Of a DNA stretch of 64,000 nucleotides, positions 19,049 to 38,545 are shown piece by piece. Where the stretch lies: NCBI RefSeq assembly GCF_988243305.1, contig NZ_OZ547136.1; one strand, 5' to 3'. The notes below the pieces were generated by a model. It made no database searches. It was given only the letters and a program-made list of their open reading frames with translations, and had not been told where the DNA came from. Position 1 is the stretch's first letter; every line of letters begins with the position of its first letter. A program made the position numbers and the translations under genes.

Positions 19049-19058
19049 ACGACGCAAA

Positions 19059-20435: not shown

Positions 20436-20453
20436 GTGTATTATCGGCGCAGA

Positions 20454-20482
20454 GCCCGGGCGAACCGGGCTTTGTTTTATTT
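20454..20482 (+). terminator. Putative rho-independent terminator of phoH
   Basis: gcccggg-cgaa-cccgggc hairpin followed by tttgttttattt. Confidence 0.55.
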
Positions 20483-20997
20483 CATTAACAGCAAAGACTT
20501 TCACTTCAGGTTAACGTTCTGGGGGGCGACTTTGAGCGTGTTGATAAGCTGAAATGAATTCTGGTTTAGATACTTTTACCAGGCATTTTTCGTCATAGCA
20601 CGCGACCAATGTAATGCCGCCAGCGCGGAGAGTTTTTTGCCTATCTTTTTCCAGCCATTCAACCTGTACAGGAGGTCTGGTGCCAATTTTGCGTATGAGG
20701 TTTAATCAACAATGGGCCAAAATTTGACTGACTGATTAACACCGAATATATTCTCCTGATTTTATTTTTTAGGGATAATATTAAAAATATAAGGTTAATC
20801 TTAATTAAATTTTTGGCTAATATTGTGTGTTGTTATTTTTTGTGGACGGCAAGCCGCAATGGCAAAATAGGTATGGTTGTAATAATCAAAACATGATACT
20901 AACTATATATAGATCGTTGAATTGTTGGCATGTAACTCGCTACAGCGAGTAGCGTTAGTAATGAAATATAATCAACATGGATAGGTGAAGATTAATT

Positions 20998-21684
20998 ATG
21001 AGCTTTATGGTTTTTGTAACTTGTTTGACAATTGCATTTGTCGCCGGTTTTGCTGTTGCCAGAAAATTGACACTCCGAAAAGTTGCCTCATCGGTAATCA
21101 TCACTAGATCGCAACCAGTCCCTTCCTCTGCAACTTCCCCTGCTGCTAAGGCGTCGACAAGGAGCTATACACCGCAGAAAACCTATCGTGACTCTCGTTG
21201 GCAAGAACGAGATGAGTTGTTCCAGGGAATGGTTGCCGAAGGTATTTTATTGGAAGGAAAAGAGTGGTTAATTACGCGTTGTGAAAAAATTTATTTTGAT
21301 AATCTGGAGAAATGGTTTGGACATTCTTGTCATATCCATTGCCAGGTCTCTCTGGGGCGCTTGATCAACTTTCCAGAACAACCCGAGTTTAGCGAAGAAG
21401 AAAGAAAGCGTTTCTTTGCAATTTATAATGGAATGGCAATGGATTATGTTCTGGTTTCAAAGAAGAACAATAAAATAGTCTGTGTTATTGAGCTGGATGA
21501 GCCGAGTCATGAAAGGGCAGATCGCATTATTCGTGACCGTTGGTTGAATACGATTATGACTATTGCACGGGTGCCTTTTGTACGAGCTTCTGTCACTAAA
21601 TTGGATGAAATCCCTCCGGTCTGGGATACCCGTGACAAAATTCGCCCATTAGCCGCGGCGACAAAGGGTGAACCGTTGCATTAA
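20998..21684 (+). CDS. Membrane-anchored DUF2726-like protein
   Basis: 228-aa ORF with N-terminal TM helix and a C-terminal region that I read as DUF2726-like (NFPEQPEF ... VIELDEPSHE); AT-rich promoter region upstream. Confidence 0.55.
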   Translation: MSFMVFVTCLTIAFVAGFAVARKLTLRKVASSVIITRSQPVPSSATSPAAKASTRSYTPQKTYRDSRWQERDELFQGMVAEGILLEGKEWLITRCEKIYFDNLEKWFGHSCHIHCQVSLGRLINFPEQPEFSEEERKRFFAIYNGMAMDYVLVSKKNNKIVCVIELDEPSHERADRIIRDRWLNTIMTIARVPFVRASVTKLDEIPPVWDTRDKIRPLAAATKGEPLH

Positions 21685-21691
21685 CTAAGTA

Positions 21692-21969
21692 CCCCGGTCA
21701 GGGCTTCTCATCTCCCCCGGTGTGTGCAATATACGAAAAAAAAGCCCGTACCTTCGTACGAGCTCTTCTTTAAAGATGGCGGTGAGGGGGGATTGACTCG
21801 CTTCGCTCGCCCTGCGGGCAGCCCGCTCACTGCGTTCACGGTCTGTCCAACTGGCTGTCGCCAGTTGTCGAACCCCGGTCGGGGCTTCTCATCCCCCTGT
21901 GTGTGCAATATACGAAAAAAAAGCCCGTACCTTCGTACGAGCTCTTCTTTAAAGATGGCGGTGAGGGGG
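21692..21969. repeat. Two ~99-bp near-identical direct repeats separated by ~81 bp
   Basis: Copies at ~21692–21790 and ~21872–21969; on the minus strand each carries a stem-loop followed by T8. Confidence 0.6.
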
Positions 21970-22129
21970 ACCGCCTGAAATAAATCTGACTTAATCCAGG
22001 GGTGTTATATAATTTCATTATAAACAATGTATTACACTTTTTGTTGTCCGATATTATCTAATGTATTCTTAGTGAAGCGAGAGACTAATGGCATACTGGA
22101 TGGCATACCAGAGTGACGGGAATTAGCGT

Positions 22130-23332
22130 ATGGCAGTATTGACGGATACGAAAGCAAGACATATCAAACCTGATGACAAACCATTGCCCCATGGGGGAAT
22201 TACCGGACTGACCCTTCATCCTTCTTCAGTAAAGGGGCGGGGGAAATGGGTTTTTCGTTATGTAAGTCCGGTGACACAAAAAAGACGTAATGCTGGATTG
22301 GGAACTTACCCAGAGGTCAGTATTGCTGAAGCTGCACGTACTGCCCGGATAATGCGAGAGCAACTTGCTGCAGGTGATGATCCTCTGGAGATTAAAAAGG
22401 CTGAATCTGAGAAAGTCGCTATCCCAACATTTGCCGATGCAGCCAGGCGTGTACATGCAGAACTGTCTCCTGGATGGGAAAATCCAAAGCATGTAAGGCA
22501 GTGGTTATCGACGCTTGAGAATTACGCGTTTCCTCAACTGGGAGCAAAAACGCTGGATTCGATTACGGCTGCGGACGTGGCAGAAACACTGCGTCCAGTC
22601 TGGTTAACCTTATCAGAAACGGCAAGCCGGGTTAAACAGCGCATTCATGTTGTTATGCAGTGGGGATGGGCGCACGGTTTTTGTGTAGCAAATCCTGTTG
22701 ATGTGGTTGACCATTTGCTTCCTCAGCAGACAAGAGGACGTGATGAACACCAACCCGCAATGCCCTGGAGGCAGTTACCGCTTTTTGTGGCGACCAGTGT
22801 GTATACCGATGAACCTTATAATGTTACCCGCGCACTGTTATTAATGGTGATACTTACAGCAACTCGCTCGGGCGAAGCCAGGGGAATGCGCTGGGCTGAA
22901 ATTGATTTTCATAAGCGGGTATGGACTATACCTGCAGAAAGAATGAAAGCTAGGCTACAGCATCGTGTTCCTTTATCCCGGCAGGCTATTTACATTCTGG
23001 AAAATATACGTGGCCTGCATGATGAACTGGTGTTCCCTTCACCCAGAAAGCAGCAGATCCTTTCCGATATGGTGTTGACAAGTTTTCTGCGTAAAAAGAA
23101 AGCCGTCAGTGACATTCCGGGGCGAGTTGCCACGGCACATGGTTTTCGCTCAACATTCAGGGACTGGTGTAGCGAACAGGGGTATTCGCGGGATCTGGCG
23201 GAAAGGGCGCTCGCTCATACGCTGAAAAATAAGGTTGAGGCGGCATATCATCGTACTGATCTACTGGAGCAGCGTGTACCGATGATGCAGGCATGGGCGG
23301 ATTATGTGATGTCTCAAATTGTGAATAAATAA
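22130..23332 (+). CDS. P4-type tyrosine integrase
   Basis: 400-aa ORF with arm-binding-type N-terminus and C-terminal catalytic region (HGFRSTF ... LAH ... Y) as in P4/CP4-57-type integrases. Confidence 0.85.
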   Translation: MAVLTDTKARHIKPDDKPLPHGGITGLTLHPSSVKGRGKWVFRYVSPVTQKRRNAGLGTYPEVSIAEAARTARIMREQLAAGDDPLEIKKAESEKVAIPTFADAARRVHAELSPGWENPKHVRQWLSTLENYAFPQLGAKTLDSITAADVAETLRPVWLTLSETASRVKQRIHVVMQWGWAHGFCVANPVDVVDHLLPQQTRGRDEHQPAMPWRQLPLFVATSVYTDEPYNVTRALLLMVILTATRSGEARGMRWAEIDFHKRVWTIPAERMKARLQHRVPLSRQAIYILENIRGLHDELVFPSPRKQQILSDMVLTSFLRKKKAVSDIPGRVATAHGFRSTFRDWCSEQGYSRDLAERALAHTLKNKVEAAYHRTDLLEQRVPMMQAWADYVMSQIVNK

Positions 23333-23518
23333 TAGTGAAAATGTATATTGTACGATCATGATTTGATATGTGATCGTAGCAGTAGTAATTAAGAAACCGC
23401 TTTTATGTCAAATGTATTGAGCTGATAATTATCAGATCGTCAGGAAAGCGTATTTTGATTAACAGGGGATTACTTAACAATCCCCTTTTTATAAAAAATA
23501 ATTTGCCTGTTTAACTCT

Positions 23519-25336
23519 TCACTCCTGCTGAGACTGAATTATTCCTAGTGCGTCATAAATCAGTCTTCTGCGTAGTTTATTGTTTTTATCTGCACCATAT
23601 AACATAAATATATTTTCAACTTTTTCTTCAGGTGTTCTGAGATAATGGATAAGAAAGGTTATCATTCCAACACAATGGAATAAAGTGAATCCATCAAACA
23701 GGCTTATCAGGTTTCCTTTTTTTTCCCGTGTTGTAAGTATTTTTTCGCGGGTAAGAATATTTGCCAGTTCATGGGGGGCTGATATGTTTCTGCTGTCTAT
23801 AATGTCATTTATTTTACCAAGGGCTATATCAACTTCCTGTAATAGGTTATTTATCATAGCTGAGTGAATGTTATTGGTTTCATGTTCCTGACAGTTTATG
23901 AACTTATAAATCATTGAGTTATACAGAAATATTACTCTTCCTAATAAATATGTGTTTGTGTCATTTTGAAGACAGGACTCTGGGTATTCGTGATCCAGTG
24001 AAATAAGGTTAATGGACTCGCCCTGATAAGTCATAAAATAATTGATGTCATTTAATAATGCTCGGATATTTACATGATTTTTACTGAATTTTATTTTAAA
24101 TGCTATCTTTAGTATAGCAAACGCGGCAATGATAAATCCAAAAGGTAATTTCTCATAGTTCAGTTTATTGATGGTGCGATGAACACTTTCAGTCTTTCCT
24201 GAAGTAAGTTGTCTCAAACAGTTAACAAATTCTGTATAGCCATTTAAGACATAATGGCATGAAGAATCTTTTAAAGAGTTTTCTATGTTTTGTAATGTGA
24301 CGCCGTTGTTCAATGTATAAATGTAACCGCCAAAGACAATGTTTTCAATCTCAACGACACAATTTATTGTTTTTTGTTCAGGATAAAGATAAATATCAGA
24401 AATACTATAGTCTCGTATTGCGTCAATGGCATCCCACGATAATGCACTGTCAATTTTCAGTGTATAAAATGGTGAGTTCTCATTAGGAAAGTAATATATG
24501 TATTTGTTCAGTATATTCATTACATCTATTGGGTTGGTTAAATATAATAACTGGCATTCATATTCTGAAACTTCTCTTTCGCTTATCAGCATTTTATATA
24601 AAGTTGCCAGGGTGCTTGTTAATGAAGTTCGTCTTTCGAAAGCCAGTAATATAGTGAGATAATAACATGCAACCTGAACTTTATCTAAGTCAGAAATTAT
24701 TTTTTCCTTGTCTTCATTACTTAAATAAAGCAGATGTTTACAGGTTTCTTTGCATGTGTTGATAGTTGCGATAAGTTTTGTTTTTCCTGGTGTACTGTTT
24801 TTGCGAATATTACGAATGAATTCATATACGCCATCAAAGATATCTTTGAAATGCGCATTCGCTGGCGTGTATCCGGATAAACATAACTTAACGTAATTTC
24901 GCAGATATGTCCTTGCAGCATGATATATATCATCCTCATTATCCGGTATCTGAGTGAGAAAAGAATGAATATGATAGTAAAATGCCATCTCATTATCCGG
25001 GCGATATGTGTTCCTGATGTCGAGTGCGAGAATCATTGGTACAATGTCATTAAAATATTTTTGTTTTATTATTTGATGTGTTTTGTCTGTAAAAACAGAA
25101 TAGTGCATTAGCTTAACATAGAGATCTTCATATCTCCTAAATATAACTTTTCGTTGTTCTTTACTCAATACTTGTTCTTTATCAATAATGTTTATTAATT
25201 CATCAAACATGTCGCCCAGTGAATGTTGATGTGAGGAAAAATTTTTAATATTTCGGATGTCACGGCTATTCTGGTTTTTAGCCAGAACACCAAAACATGA
25301 AAAGACATCATACATTATAGTGATAAAATTATACAT
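23519..25336 (-). CDS. Hypothetical 605-aa orphan protein, strongly AT-rich
   Basis: Long uninterrupted ORF with no motif I recognise, directly downstream of the integrase. Confidence 0.6.
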   Translation of the reverse strand: MYNFITIMYDVFSCFGVLAKNQNSRDIRNIKNFSSHQHSLGDMFDELINIIDKEQVLSKEQRKVIFRRYEDLYVKLMHYSVFTDKTHQIIKQKYFNDIVPMILALDIRNTYRPDNEMAFYYHIHSFLTQIPDNEDDIYHAARTYLRNYVKLCLSGYTPANAHFKDIFDGVYEFIRNIRKNSTPGKTKLIATINTCKETCKHLLYLSNEDKEKIISDLDKVQVACYYLTILLAFERRTSLTSTLATLYKMLISEREVSEYECQLLYLTNPIDVMNILNKYIYYFPNENSPFYTLKIDSALSWDAIDAIRDYSISDIYLYPEQKTINCVVEIENIVFGGYIYTLNNGVTLQNIENSLKDSSCHYVLNGYTEFVNCLRQLTSGKTESVHRTINKLNYEKLPFGFIIAAFAILKIAFKIKFSKNHVNIRALLNDINYFMTYQGESINLISLDHEYPESCLQNDTNTYLLGRVIFLYNSMIYKFINCQEHETNNIHSAMINNLLQEVDIALGKINDIIDSRNISAPHELANILTREKILTTREKKGNLISLFDGFTLFHCVGMITFLIHYLRTPEEKVENIFMLYGADKNNKLRRRLIYDALGIIQSQQE

Positions 25337-25476
25337 AACATTCTCCTTTTATTGCACTATATAAAATTTTAACATTATATCATTTTGCTTTTCTGTTAAC
25401 TGGTTTTCATTTTTGAATCAATATTTTCTGAACAGGGTAATAGTACACGTATTAACAGATTATGTCAGAAGGCCCC

Positions 25477-26239
25477 GGTGATGCCTTCTGACGATAGATT
25501 AATGTTGTATTCTATTGGTATCTGGAGACCATATGGCAACAGTTACAGTATATTCTCCCCGCTGTAATTCCTATAAAGTGTACCGTTATGATCACAGCAC
25601 CTCAGATCATGAGCGTTTCCAGTGCTAATCCTGCAAACGTGTATTTCAACTGAATTACATCTACGAAACCCGAAAACCAGGCATTAAAGAGCAAATTGTT
25701 GAAATGGTTCATAACGGAGCCGGGGGTCGCGATAGCTCCAGAACGCTGAAGGTGGATATCAACACCGTCATTCTCACTTTAAAAAACGCTCACCACGTAA
25801 AGTAACCATATCTCCAGCCGCCAGTGTCGATGTGGCACTTATCTGTGAACTTGATGAACAATGGAGTTTTGTCGAAAACAAAGCTCGTCAGCAGTGGCAC
25901 TGGTACGCGTATAAGACCAAAGCTGACGGTGTGCTGGCTTACACTTTTGGTCCTCGCACTGATGAAACATGCCGTGAGTTGCCGGAATTCCTGAAGCCAT
26001 TCTCCGCAGGCATGATAACCAGAGACAACCGGAGCAGTTATACCAGAGAAATGCCACAGGATAAGCATCTTGTCGGCAAGATATTTACCCGGCGCATTGA
26101 GCGCAACAATCTGACACTTCGTACTCACATCAAACGACCTGCCCGGAAAACGATTTGCTTTTTACGCTCCCTGGAAATTCACGAAAAGCCATTGGTTCAT
26201 TTATCGAAAACACATGTACTACTGACAGGAGTCATTACC
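25477..26239 (+). mobile_element. IS1-family element, divergent and degenerate
   Basis: IS1-like terminal inverted repeats (ggtgatgcc ... ggagtcattacc); InsA-like and InsB-like reading frames (ICELDEQW ... RIERNNL) broken by stop codons. Confidence 0.6.
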
Positions 26240-26435
26240 AGGGCCTCTTTTGCTGTTTTTTTGCCATGAATGATAATGAGAATCGACAGCGATAAGGGAA
26301 AAGTAAAATAACACTAATGCTGTCGTTTTCTATCATATTGATTTTTAATTATTTATTGTCTTTTTTCTCAACCCATTTTTTTACGCAGACAAATTTACCC
26401 GGGGAATACAAACTGTAACGACAGTTCACCACACT

Positions 26436-26744
26436 ATGGGGGATAAAATGCCAGATCAATCCGGACACTGCAGGACTCCTTCACGCATCTTACGGATGCC
26501 TGAACTGAGCCAATTGTTAGGTATATCTCGTTCGACAATTTACGAAAAAATGAATCCGTTATCGAAATACTACGATGCAACCTTCCCCAGGCCGGTACGT
26601 CTTGGTAGTGGTTCTGTGGGCTGGCGTTCATCAGCTATTGACGAATGGCTTACTTTACATACTGTACCTGCCAGATCAGCAGTCAAAGGTGTTAATGACG
26701 AAGTGAGACATACGCTTTCTTCAGATATGACCATGAGCAGATAA
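26436..26744 (+). CDS. AlpA-family phage/island transcriptional regulator
   Basis: MPELSQLLGISRSTIYEKMNP HTH typical of AlpA-like proteins; true start may be internal. Confidence 0.7.
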   Translation: MGDKMPDQSGHCRTPSRILRMPELSQLLGISRSTIYEKMNPLSKYYDATFPRPVRLGSGSVGWRSSAIDEWLTLHTVPARSAVKGVNDEVRHTLSSDMTMSR

Positions 26745-26852
26745 GTTTTTGTCATCACGTGATCACCTCAGGAGGAAAAAGAAGCATAAGAACAATTTAG
26801 CCAGAAGTTTAATTGATAAACAAAATTTCCAGCATTCATTGTTGAAAGAGCA

Positions 26853-26906
26853 GCTATTGTCGCTATTGTCGCTATTGTCGCTATTGTCGCTATTGTCGCT
26901 ATTGTA
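26853..26906. repeat. Tandem 9-bp repeat array (gctattgtc, six units, last degenerate)
   Basis: Directly visible; a related degenerate copy lies at ~27351–27394. Confidence 0.85.
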
Positions 26907-26937
26907 GCGGTAATTGCTGCTATAACCGAAACGTATT

Positions 26938-27204
26938 ATGAAAAAGGAAGCATTTATGCCTTACATCAAACCGGATATGCCGTATTCAGTATATGCATGA
27001 CCATCAATGATAGGGAAGGCAATAATTAAAGCTCAATACAATAAACAAGTACCTCTGACTCTGGTTGCAATGTCAGTATTAACAGCGATGTCAATTGCCT
27101 GTCAGAATCAGGTTGACGTATGCAGTCCCGGAAATTTACGTGGGGCCGTTAATATTTACACTATGGTTCTGGAGAAAGGGAAAAGACCGGGGGAAAGGTA
27201 TTAG
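26938..27204 (+). pseudogene. Degenerate partial duplicate of the YfjI-like gene N-terminus
   Basis: MKKEAFMPYIKP ... then ORF 27007..27204 (AIIKAQYNKQVPLTLVAMSVLTAMSIACQNQVDVCSPGNL) parallels residues 1–70 of the downstream gene, with a frame break. Confidence 0.55.
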
Positions 27205-27404
27205 TGAAATAATTTCCGGAGGTATTAAGAATGAGAAATATGAATGATATTTCGTGGTGAATAATACAGTCTTCACTGAATTAACCTTATCGGTTTATTA
27301 AACATCAGATCTACAAATGCTCTGTATTTCTCAGAGCATCAGGTCTGAATAGCAGCTATTTTCGCTATTGTAGCGGGATTTGCTGCTATTTTACTAACCC
27401 ATTA

Positions 27405-28856
27405 ATGAAAAGAGAGGCTTTTATGTGCTTACTTGCACCAGAAAATCCTTATCCGATATATGCACTACCACCGCTGGTGAGAAATGCAATAATTGAAACT
27501 CAAAAAAATACACAGGCACCTTTGGCTATGGTGGCAACATCCGCATTAACAGCGATCTCAATTGCCTGTCAGAATCAGATTGACGTGTGCAGACCTGGAA
27601 ATTTACATGGGCCTGTTAATCTTTACTCTCTGATTCTGGCTGATTCCGGTGAAAGGAAAACGACCGTGGATAAAGTGTTTATGAAAGCATTTTATCTCAG
27701 GGATGAAGCCCTGGCGGATGAATACGCGAAACTGGTTGAGAATTACAGTACAGAAAAGGAAATATGGGAGCAAAAACAAAAAGCGCTGGAATCAAAATTT
27801 CATAAAGAGATTCGTGCCGGTAAAGATTACAAGGCAACAGAATCAGAGCTTGAAACGCATCTGAATAAACCTCCTGTTCCGCCGCAGATACGTCGAACAA
27901 TTTTTAATGAGACAACGATAGAGGGAATGTTAAAATATTACTCCGATAGCAATCGCTCTTTTGCTCTTGTATCCAGTGAAGGGGGGGTAATTTTTGACAG
28001 CCGGGCCATGAGTAAACTGGGAATTATTAACACTTTGTGGGATGGAGGTTCTCTTTTCATCGACAGGAAATCATCTCCCGGAATTAATTTGAAGGAGCCA
28101 AGACTGACGATATCGGTGATGATTCAGCCTGATGTTTACCACAAAGGTTTTTGTACGCGAAAAAAAGAAATTGTGAAAACGTCAGGACATCATGCAAGGT
28201 TTTTGATGTGTCAACCAACATCAACGCAGGGGACAAGGATAATAACCGGAGATAATTATTCATCACAGTATCAGGATTTGTTTGAAGAGAGGATCAATGA
28301 GCTTATTGATGAAAGTCTGGCGATGAGTGGTGAACGACGTTGCCTTCACTTTTCTCCTCAGGCTGCCAGAATCTGGACGGATTATTACAATGATGTGGAA
28401 TCGAAGCTGGGGGGATTGGGGCCTTTAAGACATTGCCGGGAATATGCTGCTAAAAATGCAGAGTATATGGCAAGACTGGCAGGACTTATTTACCATTCGA
28501 GCGGTGAAGAGGGGGAGATTTCCCCTTACACTGCAGAAATGGCGAGAGAATTAGCAATATGGTACGGTAATGAGTATGTGCGGTTGTCTAATCCGTTAAC
28601 TTTTGACAACTCTGCCCTGACCGTACCTGTGCGACTCATTCCAGAGGAGCTTGAACTTTTCAACTGGATAAAAAGCTATTGTATTGAGAAGGGGATCCTC
28701 TGTATGAAAAAAAATGACATTTTACAGCGTGGTCCGAACCGTTTCCGGAAAAAGGATAAAATCAACTGGTTACTGGATTTACTGTATGAACAAAACAGAG
28801 TTGTACCGGTTATTGAGGGAAAAACGTTGTGTGTCGCACCTAACTTTGACCTCTGA
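27405..28856 (+). CDS. YfjI-like island protein (DUF3987-like)
   Basis: 483-aa ORF matching the YfjI family of CP4-57-type elements by recalled similarity and position after alpA. Confidence 0.7.
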   Translation: MKREAFMCLLAPENPYPIYALPPLVRNAIIETQKNTQAPLAMVATSALTAISIACQNQIDVCRPGNLHGPVNLYSLILADSGERKTTVDKVFMKAFYLRDEALADEYAKLVENYSTEKEIWEQKQKALESKFHKEIRAGKDYKATESELETHLNKPPVPPQIRRTIFNETTIEGMLKYYSDSNRSFALVSSEGGVIFDSRAMSKLGIINTLWDGGSLFIDRKSSPGINLKEPRLTISVMIQPDVYHKGFCTRKKEIVKTSGHHARFLMCQPTSTQGTRIITGDNYSSQYQDLFEERINELIDESLAMSGERRCLHFSPQAARIWTDYYNDVESKLGGLGPLRHCREYAAKNAEYMARLAGLIYHSSGEEGEISPYTAEMARELAIWYGNEYVRLSNPLTFDNSALTVPVRLIPEELELFNWIKSYCIEKGILCMKKNDILQRGPNRFRKKDKINWLLDLLYEQNRVVPVIEGKTLCVAPNFDL

Positions 28857-29676
28857 ACGACTTAATCGTTGAGTACATATAGTCTCCTCTGCTACTTGCG
28901 GAGGAGACTAATGTCTTTACCATGTCAGCGTTGTATTAGAAAACTCTGGTACAGGTCAGTCAGTAAATATAACTGGTGTAACCACTATTTACTATTGGAT
29001 AGAGTGTTGCTCAGGATATTGTCGGCTTTAGTCTGAGGTGAGGTGGGGCCTTCATTGTTTTCGTGTTCAATAAATAATTTAGGTTAATTAGTATTATTAG
29101 TGGAAGTTATGTGATCTGTTATGTTGTCTTGTACGCACTTAACACTGGTTACGTACCGGAACACTATTAGAGTATGTTATGGCTCTGTTACAGTTTATAG
29201 GTATGAAAAAATATAATCTTTCCTGTATGAAATAATATTCTTATGGTGTGTGGGGTATGGTCTGTATACCATCATTTTTATGGTGAAGTTAAATATCTGT
29301 AGAGGCCTTAAGCTGGGTCGCTGTTTTTACTTAATGGTACAGAAGTATTAATAGCGGTGTTGCCTGTGGCTACCCGATACTGGCTTTTGTGAATGTCAGA
29401 TTACTTCCTGTAAGTGATTGAATGGTACTTCCTTAAACTCAATTCTATGAGGTGTGTTTTTACCATTGTAATTCGTACTGGTCCTCAGTTTAAGTGAGTC
29501 TTACTGTACTCTGAAATATTACCTCTTTGGAGTAATGAGGTAATACGAAACAGTTTTATCAGGTTGTCTGTGCTGCTGGTTACCTCGTTTATTAATGCCG
29601 CGGTACGGCGTTTCTGTACTCTCAGTATTTATGTAATTCCACCTTCCTGTAACTTTTATAAAGTAAGGACTATAAA

Positions 29677-30240
29677 ATGTATAATGCTAATCCCAATTAC
29701 GAAATGGACTTCATGATTCTGAAAGACGTGAATGAACACATGGAAGGTCTGTTTCAACGTTTTTCTAAACTGTTACCTTTCAGAATTGATTTTGCCTACA
29801 GGAAAGACACGCCCAGTTTTGGTCATTCCTGTAGGCACAGTATGTGTATTGAAATGCACCGCTTACTTAGTGAAACCCAAACGATGCTGGCGGGATATTA
29901 CTGGGTAATGGAATATACGTCAAACAAGGGACTTCATATTCATTTTATCGGCTACTTGGATGGGCAACGTCACAAGAAATTTTATCGGATATCCAGGCAA
30001 CTGGGAGATATCTGGAGTCGGATCACGGAAGGGGAGGGTTATTTTCACCTGTGCAGTACTAAAGACAAATACTCGGTGCGTATCGATCACGTGATTCACT
30101 ATAGTGATAAGTCTGCGGTAGACGGTTTACGTTACGCCCTTAGCTACCTGGCTAAACAGGATCAGAAAGAACACGGTATTATTCTGGGCCGTAGCAGGCT
30201 TCCCGAAAAAAGCAACCGGGGCCGACCACGACATAACTGA
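29677..30240 (+). CDS. YfjJ/YagK-like protein (inovirus Gp2-type putative replication initiator)
   Basis: 187-aa ORF; family assignment from recalled similarity and position after the YfjI-like gene. Confidence 0.6.
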   Translation: MYNANPNYEMDFMILKDVNEHMEGLFQRFSKLLPFRIDFAYRKDTPSFGHSCRHSMCIEMHRLLSETQTMLAGYYWVMEYTSNKGLHIHFIGYLDGQRHKKFYRISRQLGDIWSRITEGEGYFHLCSTKDKYSVRIDHVIHYSDKSAVDGLRYALSYLAKQDQKEHGIILGRSRLPEKSNRGRPRHN

Positions 30241-30902
30241 ATTACAGTTGTATTAGGTATTAAAATTAAGTTTCTGTAAGTTGTTGGGAGGTGCTTGAGT
30301 TAATAGGCAGAAGAGGGCGGGGCGCTTTGTCATCAGTGTAGGGGACCCGAATTTCTGCCGTGGTACCTCAGTGGATCGGATACAGGTAACGAATATGGTT
30401 CATAAATCTGACAGTGATGAATTAGCTGCACTGAGGGCAAACATAACTTGAAGCTTATGGGATTGAATGGCGACGTAAACCGCAGAGTCCTGTGCAGTGC
30501 GTTTCCGTATTATCCACGGATGAGAAAGTTGCGTTATTTTGTCGACTGTTTCGCGGGCGTGATGATGTATGGGCCCTTCGATGGGAAAGCAAAACCAGCG
30601 GCAAATCAGGGTACTTGCGGGCCTGTGCTAACGAATGGCAGCCGGGAATAGCGGTAAACTCCGGATAAAATGTGGGGACTGCGCTCACCGTCAGTTGATC
30701 CCTGTATCTGATCTCATCATCTACCACTACACGGTTTAACGGGGCCGCGTCATCTCGGCGTTGCCCGATAAATTCTTTTCTACGTATAATAACCAGAATG
30801 AACGTGTAAAACACCATAGTATTCAGAACTATAAACATCGAAACCTGCCATATTGACCAGAATAAATGACCTTATTTTTACTGAAATTTAAGGAGAACAC
30901 CG

Positions 30903-33900
30903 TTGGAAGTAGAAATGTGGGATGGTGGCTTACAAGAACAGGAAGTATTGGCTATCGAGAAAATAAAAGCTGCTTTTTCAGTCAACGTATCTAAGCCTGA
31001 CAAGCCTTTCCGTAGCGGTTCAATTAGTGAGCAGCTAAAAAGCTATGGTTTTATCGGCAATGAAATGTTCCCTTGGAAAGGTTATGCAGGTTTTCGATTT
31101 GTTGAGGCAAAAAAAGAGGGGGAATTCGATTTAGTTATTGTAACACACTGCAACGTGATCATTGTTGAACTGAAAGACTGGAACCATCAGCCTGTAACCG
31201 CACGCGGAGATACTTGGTTTAAAGGCGATAAGAACATGGGGCGCTCGCCAGTAAGCGTGACTCGTAGCAAAAAATTCATGCTGGACAAAAAACTCAAGCG
31301 TCTGGTAGACCGTTTTACGAACAAAGGCTATATCCCGATTGTTCATTTTTTTGTTGTGATGACCGGCAATGCAGATTTCAGCGCGCTGCCGGAGGAACAA
31401 CGGCGCCATACGATCTCGTTAAAAGATTTCCTGAAGTTTGCCGATCGCGGGAGCTTCAATAACTATTTCAAACCGCACCCAGCTACCAAGGTTCTTAACA
31501 AGGATTTCCATCTTTTCGATGATTTGTTCCTAGGGCCTCAGACGGCACCAAAAGCCTTGAGAGTTAATGGCTATGAAGCTAATGATATGATTTTCGAACA
31601 TCCTAAAAAGGTGTATCGAGAATATCTGGCAAAATCTGAGATATCAACGAACAGCGAAGCGCTACTCAGAGTATGGAATTTTAGAAATATAACGGGAACG
31701 AAAGCGAATACCCCGGAAGGACGAGCTCAGATTGTTTCACGTGAGCGCGAAGTGTTACAGCACATCAATCACCAGAATCGTGACCTGTATAACCACTGTC
31801 TCAGGTCTTTGACGAGTTTTCAGAAAGACGAGGTGACGGCCGAGTATAGCGAAGTCTACGAAGTTCCGCCGGGTCATGTCCGGTTTAATGAGTTTATCGG
31901 AAAATATGGTAAGAACTTTTCTGATATGGACCGCTTGAATGTGGTGAAACTGCTCATTGCAAAGTTTAGTGATCTCCATGAGATGAAAATTGCGCACAGG
32001 GATGTCGCCGATCACAGTCTGTGGATTTCACCTTCAAAAGAAGTTGCTCTTTCGAACTTTATTTCGGCTTACCACCAGCCAGCCGGAACGGTTGGCGATT
32101 ACCGTAAGCTTTTATCCGTAGGTGCAGTCCACGTAAAAGACATGCTTGATAAGGGCGAGCTTACGCCTTTTCAGCAAGATGTTCATACTCTGGGCCTTGT
32201 CGCCTGGCACTTATTTAGCGGTATGCGCATGTCGCCAAAGAGTCTGGAGAAAGTACAGGACAACATGCTAAACAGCCAGCACTGGTATTCATCTGTATTA
32301 CGGGATGCCGTTGCCGCAAAATTCACTTCTGCAACAGAATTCTTTGATGCCCTGAAACAAGCCGAACCTGCTGGCAAGGATATTCCAACATTTGATGATA
32401 CTGAGCTTGACCCTTACCGACATGCTATCAATCACGCTCGTCAATACCCGGAAGACGATGGCTTTCAGTTTCAGGTCGAAACAGTCGACAAAGAAGTCTA
32501 TATCTCGAAAGGAAGGCTCGTGAAGGCTTGGCTGAATGTTGGGGGACAGGGATACGATCCGTCAATTAATTTCCAGGTTCTGAAGTTTTTAAAGCAGGTT
32601 GAGCGGCTTTCTTCAGTTAAAACAACGTATCTACCTCAAATTCGTGAATTCGGTATCGCATCAAAATCATCAAGCCTATATATGGTCACGGATCAGGTAC
32701 AGGGAGAAACCTGGGATAAAATAGCGGTCCCCGATGATGAAAAAATCGACCTCATTGGTAAGTTTGTCGCCGCCGTTGAGCACTTACATGGTCTGGGTGT
32801 TTCTCACGGGGACATCCACCCTGGCAATGTGATATTTGAGACACAGAGCCGTTTGCTTTTTCTCATCGATATCCCCGATTTTTCACCGTCCGGTGACGAA
32901 CCTAAAAATCACAGTTACAGCCCTGAATACATTGATAATTGTACTTCTTTTGAACGTGACAACTATGCAGTGATGAAGATGTCCTGCGAGTTGCTAGGCA
33001 TGTCATGGGGGCTGGAATCAGACATTTATCCGACAATCGCGAATGCTATCCGAGCAGAGCTGGAAGATCCGGTTTTTGGGTTTAAGGATTTAGGCCGCTT
33101 TAAAAAAGCGATAGATAGTAATGACCTGGTGCCAGAACAAGACCTGATAGAGATTACTGCAGGAAATGCCGATGAAATAATCTCTATTCTGCCTGATAAC
33201 GGGCATCTGTATGTCAAAGTTAAGTCAAATCCTAAAGCGCCAGCTGAAGTAAATGTGACTTTCTCTGGGATTGGTGGCAGTTTTACTGCGGTGTTCAACA
33301 AAGATCAGAAGACGCTGGTTCATGGCTTCAGGCCACGGGCTCGCGTCACAATTCGTAAGCAAGATATTGATGAAAGCCAGTTCGAAATTGATACTGGCAT
33401 CAAGATTATTCCCGGCAGTCCGCAGGATCTGTCGGCGTTGACAGTATTGCTTAATGAAGAAGAATCTTTTGCGCGGGCAATCGAGTTGATTGCCGCAACT
33501 GAAGATGTTCAGGTACAAGAGCCACTTACGCTTCAGCTAAAAGATACCTTTGCAAGGCTTGATAAGCAGACGCTTGAACCTTCTTTAAGAGAAGTGCTGG
33601 AAATCCCAACAGTGAAACTGTGGCGCGCCATTCTGGATACTGAAACAGAATCTTATCCAAACATTGAAATCAGCGGTGAAGTGGTCCCGGTTGCAGATGC
33701 TCATGGAGAGCTTCTTCTCCCTTACTCTGCTGATGTTGATCCACTCGGTGCTTTCAGAAGTAGTGATGAAGTCGAAGCCTTACAGGTCGATCAGGAAGGT
33801 GTTGAGCGATTTATTGGTGAAGTGTCACTTAAGAAGTCAGAGCTCAAAGAGATTCGTCTTGTCAAAGTTAGTTCAGCAGCCTTCAAGCTGAAGGATTCTG

Positions 33901-35873
33901 ATATTGTCTTCTTCCGTACAAGGCCGACTCGTGCATCTTATCAGAAACGTAAACGCGCACTGGAACGTCTCCTAGATCGAGAAAGTGTGCTGCCTGACTT
34001 AATTGACTTGTTCGATCCATCCTGCAAACAGGCGGCTCAAAATTATGGTATCACTCTCAGCGATACCGATTTTGCCAGATACGACCGTGAAGATCAGCAC
34101 GGAAACAAGATCAGTCTGAATGAACAGCAAAGAAAGGCGTTTAACAAACTGGTCAATAATGGCCCTCTCTCCCTGCTTCAGGGGCCACCGGGGACCGGTA
34201 AAACCGAGTTCATCGCGGCCTTTGTTCACTACCTGATCGAGAAACAGAATACCAAACGCATTTTACTGGTCAGCCAGTCACACGAGGCTGTGAATACAGC
34301 GGCCGAGCGTATCAGAAAGCATTGTTCCCGGCTTGGTACAGAGTTGGACGTTGTCAGGTTCAGCAACCGAGAGGGAGCCGTTTCCCCTGGCTTAAAAGAT
34401 GTGTACTCACACGCAATCACAACAGAGAAGCGCGAACTCTTCAATGCTGAAATTAAGTACCGTGTTGAAGCATTGAGTGAAGCTATTGGTCTGGAGCCGG
34501 GATTTATTTCGGGTGTTGTTCTTGCAGAGCTCAATTTGTTCAGACAAATCGATCACCTTGAGAAATTGCTCTATCAGGTTAACAATTTAACGGATTCAAA
34601 TGAGAGCAATGAACTGAAAGATATTGCAGTCGAACTCGATTTTTCCATCCGCTCTAAGCTGAGTCAGGAGTATGGGATTAACTTGGACAATGGCGTGAAG
34701 GTCTCAGCAGCAAAAGACATTCTGATTTCCAAGCTATGTACAGAGTATGGTGTCAGACCTGATGAGGCAAGACGAGTAAAAGCATTAGCTAAAATATCCC
34801 GTGATATGCAGGATGCTATGTCGGGAGAGCGAGTGAACCTGGACGAGTTTTATTCGCGCTCCAGGCAGTTAGTGGCTGGCACATGCGTTGGTATTGGACA
34901 AGGGCACATTGGCATTCAGGAGAATATCTATGACTGGGTGATTATTGATGAGGCGGCGCGCTCGATTTCAAGTGAGCTGGCCATTGCAATGCAGTCAGCC
35001 CGGCGTGTCCTGTTGGTGGGTGACCACATGCAGCTTCCTCCATTGTACTCAGATGCCCACAAGGCGGCATTAGCGAGGAAGCTGGGTATCAATAACTCCC
35101 GCACTGAAATTGACGAGGTATTACGAAGTGACTTTGCCCGAGCCTTCAACTCTGCTTATGGTGCGCAGACGAGTGCAGCTTTGATGACCCAGTATCGTAT
35201 GGCTCCACCGATTGGTAATCTCGTATCGAAGACGTTTTATGACGGGAAGCTTCTGAATGGAGTACGGGCAATTCCGGATGTCTATCAGCAAGCTCCGGAA
35301 GCGTTACGTAGCGTTGTAACCTGGCTTGATACTGCTAATCAGGGCCACCGAGCACATCATCTTGAAGATCGCGGAACAAGCATTTACAACCGATGTGAAG
35401 CTGACGAGATTATTTCTGTTCTTAAACAGGTGTCAGAGAATGAAGAATTTGTCGCTAAGCTTTCAAAACTTGTTAGCAAAGATGAAGCCGCTATCGGCGT
35501 GATATGTATGTATGCCGAACAAAAGCGGTTACTCCGTCAGAAATTCAATCAGGAAATCTGGAGCGAGGGATTTAAGGACATTGTTAAAATTGACACTGTT
35601 GACAGTTATCAGGGAAAGGAAAATCGGATCATTATCCTGTCACTGACGCGTTCGGATAAGCAGCATAGCCCAGGTTTCTTACGCGTTCCAAACCGTATAA
35701 ATGTCGCGATGTCACGCGCAATGGATCGACTGTTGATTGTGGGTAATGCCGATATCTGGAAGGGAAACAATAAAGAATTGCCATTAGGCTACGTTGTAAG
35801 TTATATGGCTGAGCGAGGTCAGGAAGCTGGATACAGGTTCCTCTCTGCTCAGCAGGGAGGCAAAAAGAAATGA
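30903..35873 (+). CDS. Giant multidomain protein: NERD-like nuclease region, two protein-kinase-like regions, UPF1-like SF1 helicase (candidate defence effector)
   Basis: 1656-aa ORF; aggaga SD 6 nt before the TTG start (alternative ATG at 30915); FDLVIVTHCNVIIVELKDW; IAHRDVADHSLWI and VSHGDIHPGNVIF...LIDIPDF; helicase motifs GPPGTGKT, VIIDEAARS, LLVGDHMQLPP, VDSYQGKE, RINVAMSRA. Confidence 0.8.
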   Translation: MEVEMWDGGLQEQEVLAIEKIKAAFSVNVSKPDKPFRSGSISEQLKSYGFIGNEMFPWKGYAGFRFVEAKKEGEFDLVIVTHCNVIIVELKDWNHQPVTARGDTWFKGDKNMGRSPVSVTRSKKFMLDKKLKRLVDRFTNKGYIPIVHFFVVMTGNADFSALPEEQRRHTISLKDFLKFADRGSFNNYFKPHPATKVLNKDFHLFDDLFLGPQTAPKALRVNGYEANDMIFEHPKKVYREYLAKSEISTNSEALLRVWNFRNITGTKANTPEGRAQIVSREREVLQHINHQNRDLYNHCLRSLTSFQKDEVTAEYSEVYEVPPGHVRFNEFIGKYGKNFSDMDRLNVVKLLIAKFSDLHEMKIAHRDVADHSLWISPSKEVALSNFISAYHQPAGTVGDYRKLLSVGAVHVKDMLDKGELTPFQQDVHTLGLVAWHLFSGMRMSPKSLEKVQDNMLNSQHWYSSVLRDAVAAKFTSATEFFDALKQAEPAGKDIPTFDDTELDPYRHAINHARQYPEDDGFQFQVETVDKEVYISKGRLVKAWLNVGGQGYDPSINFQVLKFLKQVERLSSVKTTYLPQIREFGIASKSSSLYMVTDQVQGETWDKIAVPDDEKIDLIGKFVAAVEHLHGLGVSHGDIHPGNVIFETQSRLLFLIDIPDFSPSGDEPKNHSYSPEYIDNCTSFERDNYAVMKMSCELLGMSWGLESDIYPTIANAIRAELEDPVFGFKDLGRFKKAIDSNDLVPEQDLIEITAGNADEIISILPDNGHLYVKVKSNPKAPAEVNVTFSGIGGSFTAVFNKDQKTLVHGFRPRARVTIRKQDIDESQFEIDTGIKIIPGSPQDLSALTVLLNEEESFARAIELIAATEDVQVQEPLTLQLKDTFARLDKQTLEPSLREVLEIPTVKLWRAILDTETESYPNIEISGEVVPVADAHGELLLPYSADVDPLGAFRSSDEVEALQVDQEGVERFIGEVSLKKSELKEIRLVKVSSAAFKLKDSDIVFFRTRPTRASYQKRKRALERLLDRESVLPDLIDLFDPSCKQAAQNYGITLSDTDFARYDREDQHGNKISLNEQQRKAFNKLVNNGPLSLLQGPPGTGKTEFIAAFVHYLIEKQNTKRILLVSQSHEAVNTAAERIRKHCSRLGTELDVVRFSNREGAVSPGLKDVYSHAITTEKRELFNAEIKYRVEALSEAIGLEPGFISGVVLAELNLFRQIDHLEKLLYQVNNLTDSNESNELKDIAVELDFSIRSKLSQEYGINLDNGVKVSAAKDILISKLCTEYGVRPDEARRVKALAKISRDMQDAMSGERVNLDEFYSRSRQLVAGTCVGIGQGHIGIQENIYDWVIIDEAARSISSELAIAMQSARRVLLVGDHMQLPPLYSDAHKAALARKLGINNSRTEIDEVLRSDFARAFNSAYGAQTSAALMTQYRMAPPIGNLVSKTFYDGKLLNGVRAIPDVYQQAPEALRSVVTWLDTANQGHRAHHLEDRGTSIYNRCEADEIISVLKQVSENEEFVAKLSKLVSKDEAAIGVICMYAEQKRLLRQKFNQEIWSEGFKDIVKIDTVDSYQGKENRIIILSLTRSDKQHSPGFLRVPNRINVAMSRAMDRLLIVGNADIWKGNNKELPLGYVVSYMAERGQEAGYRFLSAQQGGKKK

Positions 35874-37306
35874 TATCTGATAACAAAGTTACCTATCATG
35901 AGGTTGACTTCCTGCTGCCAGCACAGAGGTTTAACATTCAGTTTTCCTATGTTTCCCAGAAGGGGCTGCCATTTATCCGGGAGTTTGTGCTGAGACTTGT
36001 TCATGTAGCTTCGATGAGCAAAGCACAAATAGCAACCTATTTCGGCCTGACCCACCGTGAGACAGAGGAGGCGATTTCCGATCTTGTGCAGCGTGGCGAA
36101 TTGACGCTCTCCTCAGACGGCAGACTGGCCTTAACAGACAAATCAAATGGCTATTTTTCAGAGGTTGGCGAGATACCGCATCTTTCAACTATTCAGGACA
36201 GTGGCTGTACCTTATCCTTTGATTTAGCCACATTTAGTTGCTTCAGCAACCAGGCTTTTCAGGACCACTGGAGGGGAGGGGTAACATTAAAGGTTGATGA
36301 CAACAACATTTCTCAAAGTGAGAAACTGGTTGAGAAGCACTTTCAATACCAGTTTAATCAAATCCTGGATAAAGGTTACCTGTCTCACCTGCAGGTTCAG
36401 GTCGGAAAAGAACAACCTTCTATCTATACCGTTAATTCTGTTAATAAGCTGCGGCAAATACCACTCCGTTTAACAACGGAATTTAAAATGGATAGCGATG
36501 GTAAGGCTGTCGAGCGTGAAGACTATGAACAGTTAAATAGTTCGGAATGTGTTCATGAGTTAATGGCTGTTGAGATAGCCAGGTTATCACGGCATAACAA
36601 TACCATGAGTATTTTTAAGGCCATGCAATCCATTAACGATGACCTTACGCTTAAGCTGTTTGACTCTAAAACGAATCGACTTAATCCGTTGTTTATCAAA
36701 GATATGCAAGCACTGGAAGAATACTCGTCCTCAGGCAGAACGACTTTTTTAGGTCCGGTTTATTCTAAAAACAACTGGGAAAAGCTGCAGAAAGCTCTGG
36801 CACCAGCGCTCAATCAGCGTATCAGAGATAAAACTGATTATGGAGGTAGCCCGTTCATCTGGGTGGCACCATCAGATCCCTACTGGTCAAAAAGCATTCG
36901 ATTTATCTCAAGCCTGAGCAATTTTCTTAGCAAGTCGGCTACGAAGGATAAGCAGCTGTATAAACCGGTGCTGTACGTACCTGTCCGGGATGCAGCTGAT
37001 GCTCGGGTTGCCAGACAGTGGAAGTATGAACTTGGGCAATTCCATGAGTACGCTAAAGGACTAGTTGAGGGGCTGTTAGATGGTAATGTTGAGATCCTTC
37101 ATCTTGAGGATGAGTTATCTGCCGTTATCTATCATATTTCTCAACCCGAAATATTGCCTGTAACGATGCCACTGGGCTTTATCACAACGAACAAAGAAAC
37201 GGTTAAGATTATTGGTACTCTGGTTACTGAATATATCAAAGGCACCACTGGTTTTGATAAGTTTCATGACTGTGGCGCAATTTCGGCAATGATTAAGAAA
37301 GGTTGA
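35870..37306 (+). CDS. Hypothetical 478-aa partner protein with possible N-terminal winged-helix region
   Basis: Start overlaps the upstream stop (ATGA); no PLD HxK(x)4D motif seen. Confidence 0.7.
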
Positions 37307-37461
37307 GCTGTTGGAACAGGAGGTATGGGGCATGTTTGCGTATTTTTATGGAAAGAAATAACCCAATGACGGCGTTACTCTCCAACTGGGTTGACGCGTG
37401 CTGCCTGTTAATGGCTCCGCTGAATGATGCCCTATACCGTTATGTGATGAACACCCGCCTG

Positions 37462-37720
37462 GGAACCATCCACGGCACGTCGGTCGGCGAACTGCTGGCG
37501 TGGATCAAAGAAGATGAAAACCCTCGCAAAGGCGAGATGGTGCTGATTATTGAAGGCCATAAAGCCCAGGATGACGAACTGCCCGCCGATGCGCTGCGTA
37601 CGCTGGCGCTGTTGTAGGCTGAGCTGCCGTTGAAGCAAGCGGCGGCGTTGGCGGCAGAAATCCACGGAGTGAAGAAGAATGCGTTGTATAAGTATGCGCT
37701 GGAACAGCAGGGGGAATAAG
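37462..37720 (+). pseudogene. 3'-terminal fragment of an rsmI-like gene with an in-frame stop
   Basis: ...[77 protein letters not shown] resembles the recalled RsmI C-terminus; upstream part of ORF 37303..37617 is unrelated. Confidence 0.55.
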
Positions 37721-38218: not shown

Positions 38219-38545
38219 ATGACTAAAAATACTCGTTTTTCCCCCGAAGTCCGTCAACGGGCAGTCCGTATGGTTCTGGAAAGTCAGAGCGAATATGACT
38301 CACAATGGGCGACAATTTGTTCCATTGCTCCAAAGATTGGCTGTACGCCGGAGACTCTGCGTGTCTGGGTTCGCCAGCATGAGCGGGATACCGGGGGCGG
38401 TGATGGAGGGCTCACCACCGCTGAACGTCAGCGTCTGAAAGAGCTGGAACGTGAAAATCGTGAACTGCGCCGCAGTAACGATATCCTTCGCCAGGCTTCC
38501 GCTTATTTTGCGAAGGCGGAGTTCGACCGCCTCTGGAAAAAATGA
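38219..38545 (+). CDS. IS3-family transposase OrfA (copy 1)
   Basis: 108-aa HTH/leucine-zipper OrfA ([19 protein letters not shown]...). Confidence 0.85.

Follow-up and report, generated by a model that had tools for sequence, protein, structure and literature searches.

Features of the Locus

The window, meaning the whole 64,000-nt stretch of contig NZ_OZ547136.1 (assembly GCF_988243305.1) that was analyzed, carries a variable chromosomal segment beside phoH, a short tandem repeat array, and then a long run of island DNA headed by an integrase gene (Table 1). A first-pass annotation had marked off about 17 kb here, from 20.5 to 37.3 kb, as an AT-rich integrative island. The gene order that it listed, integrase, orphan, AlpA-like, YfjI-like, YfjJ-like, and two large cargo genes, is borne out by the gene calls, and the base composition is as described (GC 0.426 in the flagged region vs 0.533 in the left core). 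The flagged DNA falls into three parts: a non-island segment with a DUF2726 gene, a backbone of ~8.8 kb, and a Mokosh type I module.

Table 1. Coordinates of features in the 64,000-nt window
Feature	Position	Strand	Basis or remark
Chromosomal variable segment, non-island	20479-21690	+	DUF2726 gene at 20998-21684
RtT-like tandem repeat, ~1.5 units of ~180 bp	21691-21969	-	lies downstream of serX
Left attachment-site repeat (cryptic ser'X), TGGCGGTGAGGGGG	21956-21969	+	complement of last 14 nt of tRNA-Ser(GGA) serX
P4-family tyrosine integrase, OI-48/SpLE1/SRL-island type	22130-23332	+	PHROG integrase E=4.7e-52; NCBIfam PRK09692 187 bits
605-aa AT-rich orphan, small uncharacterized all-helical (TPR-like) family	23519-25336	-	
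Degenerate IS1 transposase remnant	25533-26225	+	RefSeq annotation of near-identical DNA
AlpA/Rox-type excisionase or recombination directionality factor	26436-26744	+	PHROG "excisionase and transcriptional regulator" families
9-bp tandem repeat GCTATTGTC (~6 copies, 26847-26917), then duplicated yfjI-like 5' fragment	26847-27172	+	
YfjI-like DUF3987 protein, helicase-like backbone gene	27405-28856	+	PHROG DNA helicase E=2.1e-62
YfjJ/YagK-like (inovirus Gp2-type) protein	29677-30240	+	Pfam REP_ORF2-G2P E=0.001, YagK_YfjJ_C E=0.18
TOTE archaeo-eukaryotic primase gene remnant, first ~350 nt	30377-30727	+	intact in SpLE1
MkoA, Mokosh type I, 1652 aa from ATG	30915-35873	+	NERD, protein kinase, Upf1-like SF1 helicase domains
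MkoB, Mokosh type I, HTH-only subtype, 478 aa	35870-37306	+	PADLOC PDLC03923, 503 bits
rsmI 3' pseudogene fragment	37458-37716	+	85% nt, 88% aa identity to K-12 RsmI residues 204-286
Alpha-galactosidase ("enterotoxin") gene	37786-41012	-	split by IS629-type IS3-family element at 38165-39474
agaR, island-borne second copy	44461-45267	+	99.6% aa identity to K-12 AgaR
Genes for aspartate racemase and DcuA, homologous to SRL island orf8-orf9	61693-63776	+	annotated in CRE389

The phoH Side

Homology to K-12 breaks off at 20478 and returns at 21691. The DNA in between, with a GC content of 0.403, stands where the pgaDCBA-dgcT-IS3-ymdE-ycdU block does, between phoH and the serX repeats. The first-pass annotation proposed that the island occupies or replaces pga. 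The DUF2726 segment occurs in 1051 of 5426 genomes, island-free ones among them, and therefore the island did not replace pga. Strain CFSAN061761 carries the same island beside an intact pga-ycdU block. The pga-ycdU block and the 1.2-kb DUF2726 segment are alternative states of a chromosomal polymorphism that is independent of the island. The DUF2726 gene was also considered as a defense gene; this was dropped, as PADLOC returned no match for it.

The Left Junction and the Attachment Site

The left flank of the island is the repeat region that lies downstream of serX. Each of the RtT-like units here terminates in a copy of the serX 3' end (21777-21790 and 21956-21969), and these are the only two copies of TGGCGGTGAGGGGG in the window, against a chance expectation of 0.01. 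The K-12 counterpart that matches this array is a 3.4-copy, 181-bp array overlapping the serX 3' end. Rfam finds RtT at 21777-21911 on the minus strand (43.5 bits), and direct repeat D3 is recorded for the array. Among the 5426 complete E. coli genomes, the closest match to the left flank is 98.9%.

Alignment against genomes lacking the insert, which the first-pass annotation had suggested for defining the empty site, does define it. In the island-free strains 1190 and A25 the order is phoH-DUF2726-RtT repeats-serX-ghrA. Strain 1190 aligns collinearly with the window over 15591-21969 (99.06%), and collinearity stops at 21969. When the junction contexts are set beside the empty sites and the serX-side island end in strain MLI114, the left copy of the core is perfect and the first island nucleotide is 21970, directly after TGGCGGTGAGGGGG. 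Next to the core, GGATTCGAACC would mark the tRNA body and GGATTGACTCGC a repeat unit. For OI-43/48 and the SRL island, this 14-bp repeat has been published as the flanking repeat and att core; there, the integrase lies beside ycdU and the cryptic ser'X and the intact serX lies beside ycdW (PMC3064760).

The earlier reading of an integrase with no flanking tRNA and an unresolved att site is not supported. ARAGORN finds no tRNA or tmRNA gene in all 64,000 nt, and the sole Rfam tRNA match, at 54195-54262, is a marginal one to a tRNA-Ile(CAU)-like pseudo-tRNA that is unrelated to the left junction. The integrase nevertheless adjoins the cryptic serX 3' end, which is the published att core. In this family, and in the relatives compared, the intact tRNA is found at the integrase-distal end, which would here lie outside the window and so explain the lack of a tRNA near the integrase. 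Neither a second copy of TGGCGGTGAGGGGG to the right of the island start nor serX nor ghrA is found up to position 64000.

In the proposed mechanism, the P4-family tyrosine integrase would act on a 14-bp core that the island, as a circle, has in common with the tRNA-Ser(GGA) 3' end, and recombine the two. After integration, the displaced copy (cryptic ser'X) would stay beside the integrase gene, and an intact, reconstituted serX would move to the opposite end of the island. The predicted empty attB reads ...TTAAAGA-TGGCGGTGAGGGGG-GGATTCGAACC..., and the predicted attP of the circle reads ...CTTATAATC-TGGCGGTGAGGGGG-ACCGCCTGAAAT.... The same repeats together with the AlpA/Rox-type directionality factor could also allow excision. 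Both OI-43/48 and the SRL island are reported to excise (PMC3064760, PMC7545054), and excision was measured at 2e-4 to 2e-3 (PMC3064760). The island may still be mobile in its source genome today.

A full 14-bp core in every ~180-bp unit raises the question of whether integration took place in an RtT-like pseudo-att copy downstream of serX instead of in serX proper, and the array in the window is in fact one unit shorter than in the empty-site strains, with two cores left of the island vs three. The number of units varies in island-free genomes anyway, however, with three units plus serX in K-12 and two plus serX in 1190 and A25, and the right end of the island in MLI114 is fused straight to the body of serX with no repeat unit in between. 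Use of a pseudo-att copy is consequently rated as highly improbable; judged from these relatives, serX itself would be the ancestral target copy of the core.

The Backbone

The left end of SpLE1, the O157:H7 element also known as OI-48, aligns to the window from 21895 to 30727, and the backbone at 21970-30727 is 97-99.8% identical to it. Against the Sakai-type locus, identity is 99.8% over 21895-26869 and 97.3% over 28292-30727, where SpLE1 homology stops; the IS1 remnant sits at the same spot in both. The integrase gene is 99.8% identical at the nucleotide level to that of O157:H7 strains. Its stretch is found in 1267 of 5426 complete E. coli genomes, and 1259 (~23%) have the integrase with the same junction. 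From 21970 onward, the evidence supports a horizontally acquired integrative island.

The first-pass comparison with CP4-57 holds for the order of the first genes. In that K-12 element (ssrA-intA-yfjH-alpA-yfjI-yfjJ), the order and strands of the integrase, a reverse-strand gene, alpA, yfjI, and yfjJ are shared with the window. Homology is only remote, at 34% identity for the integrase against IntA (conserved recombinase-type motifs align by inspection), 52% for AlpA, and 41% for YfjI. RefSeq names for the latter two are AlpA family regulator and YfjI family protein. The likeness of the YfjJ-like gene, named YagK/YfjJ or inovirus Gp2 in RefSeq, comes from weak profile matches only, and its product has no BLASTP match to K-12 YfjJ. 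CP4-57 also targets ssrA, with its integrase beside the RNA gene, whereas here the target is serX/serW and the integrase is tRNA-distal. For the AlpA/Rox type, the Rox protein of the SRL island has been described (PMC2704930). In the stretch at 26847-27172, ahead of the yfjI-like gene, repeat families D1, D2, and D4 are recorded and RefSeq annotates a 65-aa DUF3987 fragment.

The orphan gene has a GC content of 0.325 and lies between the integrase and, past the IS1 remnant, the alpA-like gene. It shows no relationship to YfjH (hhalign probability 0.1%), which holds the reverse-strand position in CP4-57. Gene contexts were looked up for three relatives (28-35% identical), and in each of them the gene is divergent from alpA-yfjI-yfjJ. 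The family is conserved and paired with alpA-yfjI-yfjJ. A tentative idea, which we regard as rather doubtful, is that the protein is not cargo and represents either an unrecognized core component of CP4-57/SRL-type elements (an excision or replication sensor or regulator) or a defense or anti-defense protein.

The Mokosh Type I Module

The two large genes at 30915-37306, which overlap by 4 nt, are a Mokosh type I anti-phage system. MkoA matches PADLOC model PDLC03921 over its full length (2212 bits), together with an NCBIfam IGHMBP2-family helicase (170 bits) and PglW/MAD6 kinases; its Upf1-like domain corresponds to COG1112. The layout and the lengths of 1652 and 478 aa are those of Mokosh type I from E. 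coli SEC470, construct SG199 (Millman et al. 2022). Over the first ~400 aa, the portion available for the SEC470 proteins, identity to this experimentally verified system is 92% for MkoA and 98% for MkoB.

A PLD domain was not detected in MkoB, for which Pfam gives no significant domain and the PDB no sequence match; in the H10407 subtype of Mokosh, MkoB is HTH-PLD. The protein is accepted as a Mokosh component despite the absent PLD because the SEC470 system is marked verified with its MkoB likewise labeled "HTH" only (Millman et al. preprint supplement). Because no PLD domain is detectable, the published mechanism of Mokosh, which pairs a helicase with a PLD nuclease, may not hold here in every detail. 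The copy on this island probably provides phage defense. In SpLE1, a TOTE primase gene is located at this point, and the Mokosh module appears to have replaced most of it. Mokosh is carried by 311 genomes, equal to the number with the island version of agaR.

Beyond 37.3 kb: Continuation of the Island

The right border proposed at 37.3 kb was tied to an rsmI-like fragment at about 37.46 kb, which was read as the conserved core resuming. The fragment is present, and strains MLI114, CFSAN061761, and CRE389 have it in the same setting, with a pseudogene annotation. It is not the resumption of the core. It forms one edge of an aga-region segment that the island has captured and that includes a second agaR. 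That copy is flanked by kbaY-like and UxaA-family fragments, the latter garD-like by inference, and agaR is found at two places per genome among the island-bearing genomes listed. The intervening alpha-galactosidase gene is intact in relatives; the insertion that splits it is visible in a map of the window against CRE389 and includes an ALIL pseudoknot match at 38500-38616.

Island DNA is still running at the end of the window. CRE389 is 100% identical to the window over 39-64 kb, with a match of 99.9% listed for 61320-64000. Its 74.3-kb copy of the island is bounded by a 14-bp repeat on each side, at clpA and at serW. In MLI114, the layout is int ... Ag43-CbtA/YeeU-DUF4942, then the core repeat, then serX-ghrA. 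Islands in related genomes are ~74-80 kb long and terminate at serX or serW. By analogy with these relatives, the source genome would have the right end of the island some 30-40 kb past the window, after a YeeU/CbtA-DUF4942 module. To the right of 21969, nothing in the window matches the flanks (serX, ghrA, csg) of K-12 or strain 1190.

These observations bear on the first description of the locus, a self-contained island of ~17 kb at 20.5-37.3 kb with a non-tRNA att site beside phoH and a displaced pga operon. GC does climb from ~0.45 to 0.54 near 37.4 kb, phoH is just ~1.7 kb from the integrase, and the window lacks a tRNA gene. Neither border fits, however. On the left, 20479-21690 is non-island DNA that occurs without any island, the junction is at 21956-21969, where the integrase adjoins the serX att core, and CFSAN061761 has the island with pga in place. 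On the right, the DNA past 37.3 kb is absent from the locus in K-12 and 1190 and is island DNA in relatives. Direct repeats shared by the regions around 20.5 and 37.3 kb are limited to short and imperfect pairs at chance level, and none joins the proposed borders. A free-standing 17-kb element is accordingly the least credible of the readings weighed here, and the 37.3-kb position is an internal module boundary and not an island end.

The preferred reading, to which we assign a probability of about 0.9, is that 21970-64000 and the DNA beyond it belong to a large, mosaic genomic island of the serX/serW-integrating family, of which they make up the integrase-proximal portion. A variant of it keeps the family and makes the copy here an immobile remnant: loss of the serX-side repeat, or of serX, by IS-mediated deletion or rearrangement would leave the integrase module stranded. 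Insertion sequences and pseudogenes are numerous in the island, and decay is evident in the IS1 remnant, two IS629 copies, the yfjI 5' duplication, and the TOTE remnant. In OI-48, internal IS-mediated deletions are reported to be far commoner than excision, and some strains have lost the 5' or 3' ends (PMC3064760); the right end here is outside the window. Against this stand intact integrase and alpA-like ORFs, the perfect left repeat, and the retention of both repeats in both relatives examined, MLI114 and CRE389. We consider a stranded remnant unlikely.

Relationship to Known Islands

The serX/serW-integrating family takes in the Shigella SRL island, O157:H7 OI-43/OI-48 (= SpLE1/TAI), and the ExPEC serX island. 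The OI-43/48 islands (SpLE1, the tellurite-resistance and adherence island) and the S. flexneri SRL island have the same integrase, 14-bp att repeat, and ser'X-side junction, and they lie in the same orientation, in which the integrase is tRNA-distal. The left backbone of SpLE1 is alike from int through the yfjJ-like gene and the start of the TOTE gene. From the SRL island, the AspR-DcuA genes, described there as orf8 and orf9 (PMC6980539), are also present here, at 61.7-63.8 kb.

The cargo is otherwise different. Neither the ter, ure, and iha genes of OI-48 nor the resistance and fec cluster of SRL are seen in the window. In their place are Mokosh type I, the captured aga-region segment, alpha-galactosidase, MalY-like, and MalX-like genes, and a sugar cluster with a ribokinase, a FucP-type permease, and an aldose-1-epimerase. 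Relatives of this island additionally carry a type I R-M system with DarTG, again unlike OI-48 and SRL.

Implications

The serX/serW hotspot, the integrase, the 14-bp att core, and Mokosh type I were all already published, and the main value of the present analysis is corrective, with little that is new. Since the absence of a tRNA gene is explained by serX at the far end, what had been flagged is ordinary. The missing pga operon beside phoH is a separate polymorphism, and the rise in GC at 37.4 kb marks a captured chromosomal segment within the island and no return of the local core. For the serX/serW island family, an integrase without an adjacent tRNA gene is no sign of a non-tRNA target, since these islands, ~74-80 kb long, have their intact tRNA at the other end.

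Left junction and attachment site

The island, an element of the serX/serW-integrating family that includes the SRL island, OI-43/OI-48 and SpLE1, begins at 21970. From 21691, the window carries a tandem array of 181-bp units; its K-12 counterpart is directly downstream of serX and overlaps the serX 3' end. Each unit of the array terminates in TGGCGGTGAGGGGG, the complement of the final 14 nt of tRNA-Ser(GGA). This 14-bp core occurs exactly twice in the window (0.01 copies expected by chance). The copy at 21777-21790 runs on as a repeat unit, and the copy at 21956-21969 is followed directly by foreign DNA, with the integrase start 160 nt further. The empty site, found in two island-free strains, reads phoH, DUF2726, RtT repeats, serX (minus strand) and ghrA; strain 1190 is collinear with window 15591-21969 at 99.06% identity and not past 21969. 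A left border at ~20.5 kb, as proposed in the first-pass annotation, therefore gives way to a junction at 21969, and the DNA at 20479-21690 is also present in island-free strains.

The RtT-like units of ~180 bp downstream of serX each hold the full 14-bp att core (window 21691-21969), making them potential secondary att sites. Their number varies, with three plus serX in K-12 (K-12 locus 16962-17584), two plus serX in strains 1190 and A25, and one plus the cryptic ser'X in the window.

The published layout of related islands describes exactly this left junction. In O157:H7 EDL933, a perfect 14-bp repeat, TGGCGGTGAGGGGG, which corresponds to the final 14 bp of serW and serX, borders OI-43 and OI-48 on both sides, and the repeats of the Shigella SRL island are identical (PMC3064760). 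In OI-43/OI-48, the P4-family integrase gene lies on the ycdU or clpA side, adjoining cryptic ser'X or ser'W, and the intact tRNA is at the opposite end, beside ycdW or infA (PMC3064760). They excise through recombination of these repeats, at a measured ~2e-4 to 2e-3 (PMC3064760; see also PMC7545054). The 64 kb yield no tRNA or tmRNA call in ARAGORN, as the first-pass annotation had said of the integrase flank. The puzzle drawn from this dissolves, since the integrase adjoins the serX core and sits at the tRNA-distal end, as is normal in this island family.

Chromosomal flank and the pga polymorphism

Core E. coli chromosome, with the put, efe and phoH genes, makes up window 1-20000; among 5426 complete E. 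coli genomes, 5415 hold it, and the best match reaches 98.9% identity. GC is 0.533 in this left core versus 0.426 in the ~17-kb region first proposed as the island (20500-37340). K-12 homology breaks off at 20478, 43 nt past phoH, and picks up again at 21691. The intervening DUF2726 segment is present in 1051 of the 5426 genomes (~19%), including island-free strains, and in its carriers stands in place of an ~11-kb pgaDCBA-dgcT-IS3-ymdE-ycdU block. Most carriers are just 90-95% identical to the window version, which points to an old polymorphism. The idea that the island replaced pga fails, because this segment exists without the island and CFSAN061761 has the same island beside an intact pgaDCBA-dgcT-IS3-ycdU block. 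Whether pga is present or not is thus a polymorphism of the phoH-serX interval, independent of the island.

Backbone genes

The gene order of integrase, orphan, AlpA-like, YfjI-like, YfjJ-like and then cargo is present as first described.

Features of the phoH-serX interval and the island in the window
Feature	Coordinates	Strand	Remarks
DUF2726-gene segment	20479-21690		1.2 kb; GC 0.40; chromosomal, not island DNA
Integrase	22130-23332	+	PHROG E=4.7e-52; NCBIfam PRK09692 187 bits
605-aa orphan ORF	23519-25336	-	opposite to integrase
IS1 remnant			between 605-aa ORF and AlpA-like gene
AlpA-like gene	26436-26744		excisionase/regulator PHROGs matched
Duplicated yfjI 5' fragment			between AlpA-like and YfjI-like genes
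YfjI-like DUF3987 gene	27405-28856		DNA-helicase PHROG E=2e-62
YfjJ-like gene	29677-30240		
MkoA, Mokosh type I (large gene)	30915-35873		PADLOC 2212 bits, full length
MkoB, Mokosh type I (large gene)	35870-37306		PADLOC 503 bits
rsmI-like piece	37458-37716		85% nt identity to K-12 rsmI 3' end
IS629-type (IS3-family) copies, near-identical	38165-39474; 58133-59442		ALIL frameshift pseudoknot in each
Alpha-galactosidase ('enterotoxin') gene	in 37.3-64 kb		interrupted by IS629-type element
MalY- and MalX-like genes	in 37.3-64 kb		
agaR copy	in 37.3-64 kb		
Sugar-utilisation cluster	in 37.3-64 kb		DeoR-family regulator, ribokinase, FucP-type permease, aldose 1-epimerase
IS100, IS4	in 37.3-64 kb		
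LysR-type gene	in 37.3-64 kb		
Aspartate racemase + DcuA pair	in 37.3-64 kb		known as SRL island orf8-orf9
Degenerate tRNA-like sequence	54195-54262	+	CAU anticodon; Rfam 30.7 bits, no ARAGORN call; ileX-like by eye

Identity to the K-12 CP4-57 proteins is 34% for IntA, 52% for AlpA and 41% for YfjI; YfjJ and the reverse-strand gene have no BLAST match to K-12 CP4-57. The left end of SpLE1, taken from a Sakai-type O157:H7 genome, matches window 21895-30727 at 97-99.8% identity.

The orphan has the minimum GC (0.325), and fold searches give weak TPR/RRNPP-like similarity and nothing more. With ~15 full-length relatives, which are 25-35% identical, it forms a small all-helical family that is uncharacterised. 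In all three contexts checked, the relative is divergent from AlpA-DUF3987-YfjJ, which suggests a conserved four-gene backbone module. At 26847-27421, the duplicated yfjI-like 5' fragment is closely preceded by six tandem copies of the 9-bp unit GCTATTGTC, with a partial copy also upstream of the intact yfjI-like gene; the arrangement looks iteron-like.

Mokosh cargo

SpLE1 homology stops at 30727, within a TOTE primase gene that is intact in SpLE1 but an ~350-nt remnant in the window. The Mokosh type I anti-phage genes that follow have IGHMBP2-type helicase and PglW/MAD6-type kinase matches in NCBIfam. The verified type I system of E. coli SEC470 comprises an MkoA of 1652 aa and an MkoB of 478 aa labelled 'HTH' (Millman et al. 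preprint supplement); over the first ~400 SEC470 residues, the window proteins are 92% (MkoA) and 98% (MkoB) identical. Pfam finds no PLD nuclease domain in the window MkoB, and the verified SEC470 MkoB is likewise 'HTH' only, with no PLD label. This Mokosh subtype thus differs from the usual "helicase plus PLD" picture.

Right side of the island

No direct repeat joins ~20.5 kb and ~37.3 kb, the 14-bp core does not recur up to 64000 even with one mismatch allowed, and serX, ghrA and csg have no match right of 21969 in the window. A right border at ~37.3 kb is accordingly abandoned: 37.3-64 kb is all accessory DNA, also present in relatives' islands. GC is core-like after 37.4 kb because a chromosomal aga-region segment (37458-45400) was captured there. 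It comprises the rsmI-like piece, a kbaY-like fragment, an AgaR copy (99.6% aa identity to K-12) and a UxaA-family pseudogene, taken to be garD-like. The island agaR version is found in 311 genomes, a count equal to that for the Mokosh genes, and the segment co-occurs with Mokosh in ~311 genomes. In the island-bearing genomes listed, agaR is at two places. The alpha-galactosidase, MalY-like and MalX-like genes occupy the position of the aga and yra genes in K-12.

The sites of both IS629-type copies are empty of IS629 in the closest relatives, and the copy that does not split the alpha-galactosidase gene lies within IS4. The tRNA-like sequence, located between island modules and beside IS100, may be the scar of a former tRNA-integrated module.

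The far end is seen in relatives. In MLI114, the island goes on for ~80 kb and ends in Ag43-YeeU/CbtA-DUF4942, followed by TGGCGGTGAGGGGG and then the serX body and ghrA. In CRE389, which is 100% identical to window 39-64 kb, essentially this island spans 74.3 kb and sits at serW, bounded by a 14-bp repeat on the clpA side and another on the serW side, in the order clpA, int ... DUF4942, serW-infA. Both paralogous tRNA-Ser genes thus serve as targets of one element.

Distribution and mobility

Of 5426 genomes, 1267 contain the integrase region, and 1259 of these share the repeat/island junction of the window; at least 80% of window 17-41 kb is present in just 138 genomes. Island segments (21970-64000) are 99.7-100% identical to islands of unrelated strains, versus at most 98.9% for the core flank, which is consistent with recent horizontal spread.

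The window has the left junction of a known family, an empty site in comparison strains, and intact integrase and alpA-like ORFs. By analogy with published near-identical elements, the integrase would recombine the 14-bp cores, and an AlpA/Rox-type factor would stimulate this recombination (PMC2704930). The initial borders, the missing tRNA target and the pga replacement all fall; the island itself stands, real but already known. The right repeat and serX are probably intact in this genome, the island is likely still able to excise, and this Mokosh copy presumably defends against phage.
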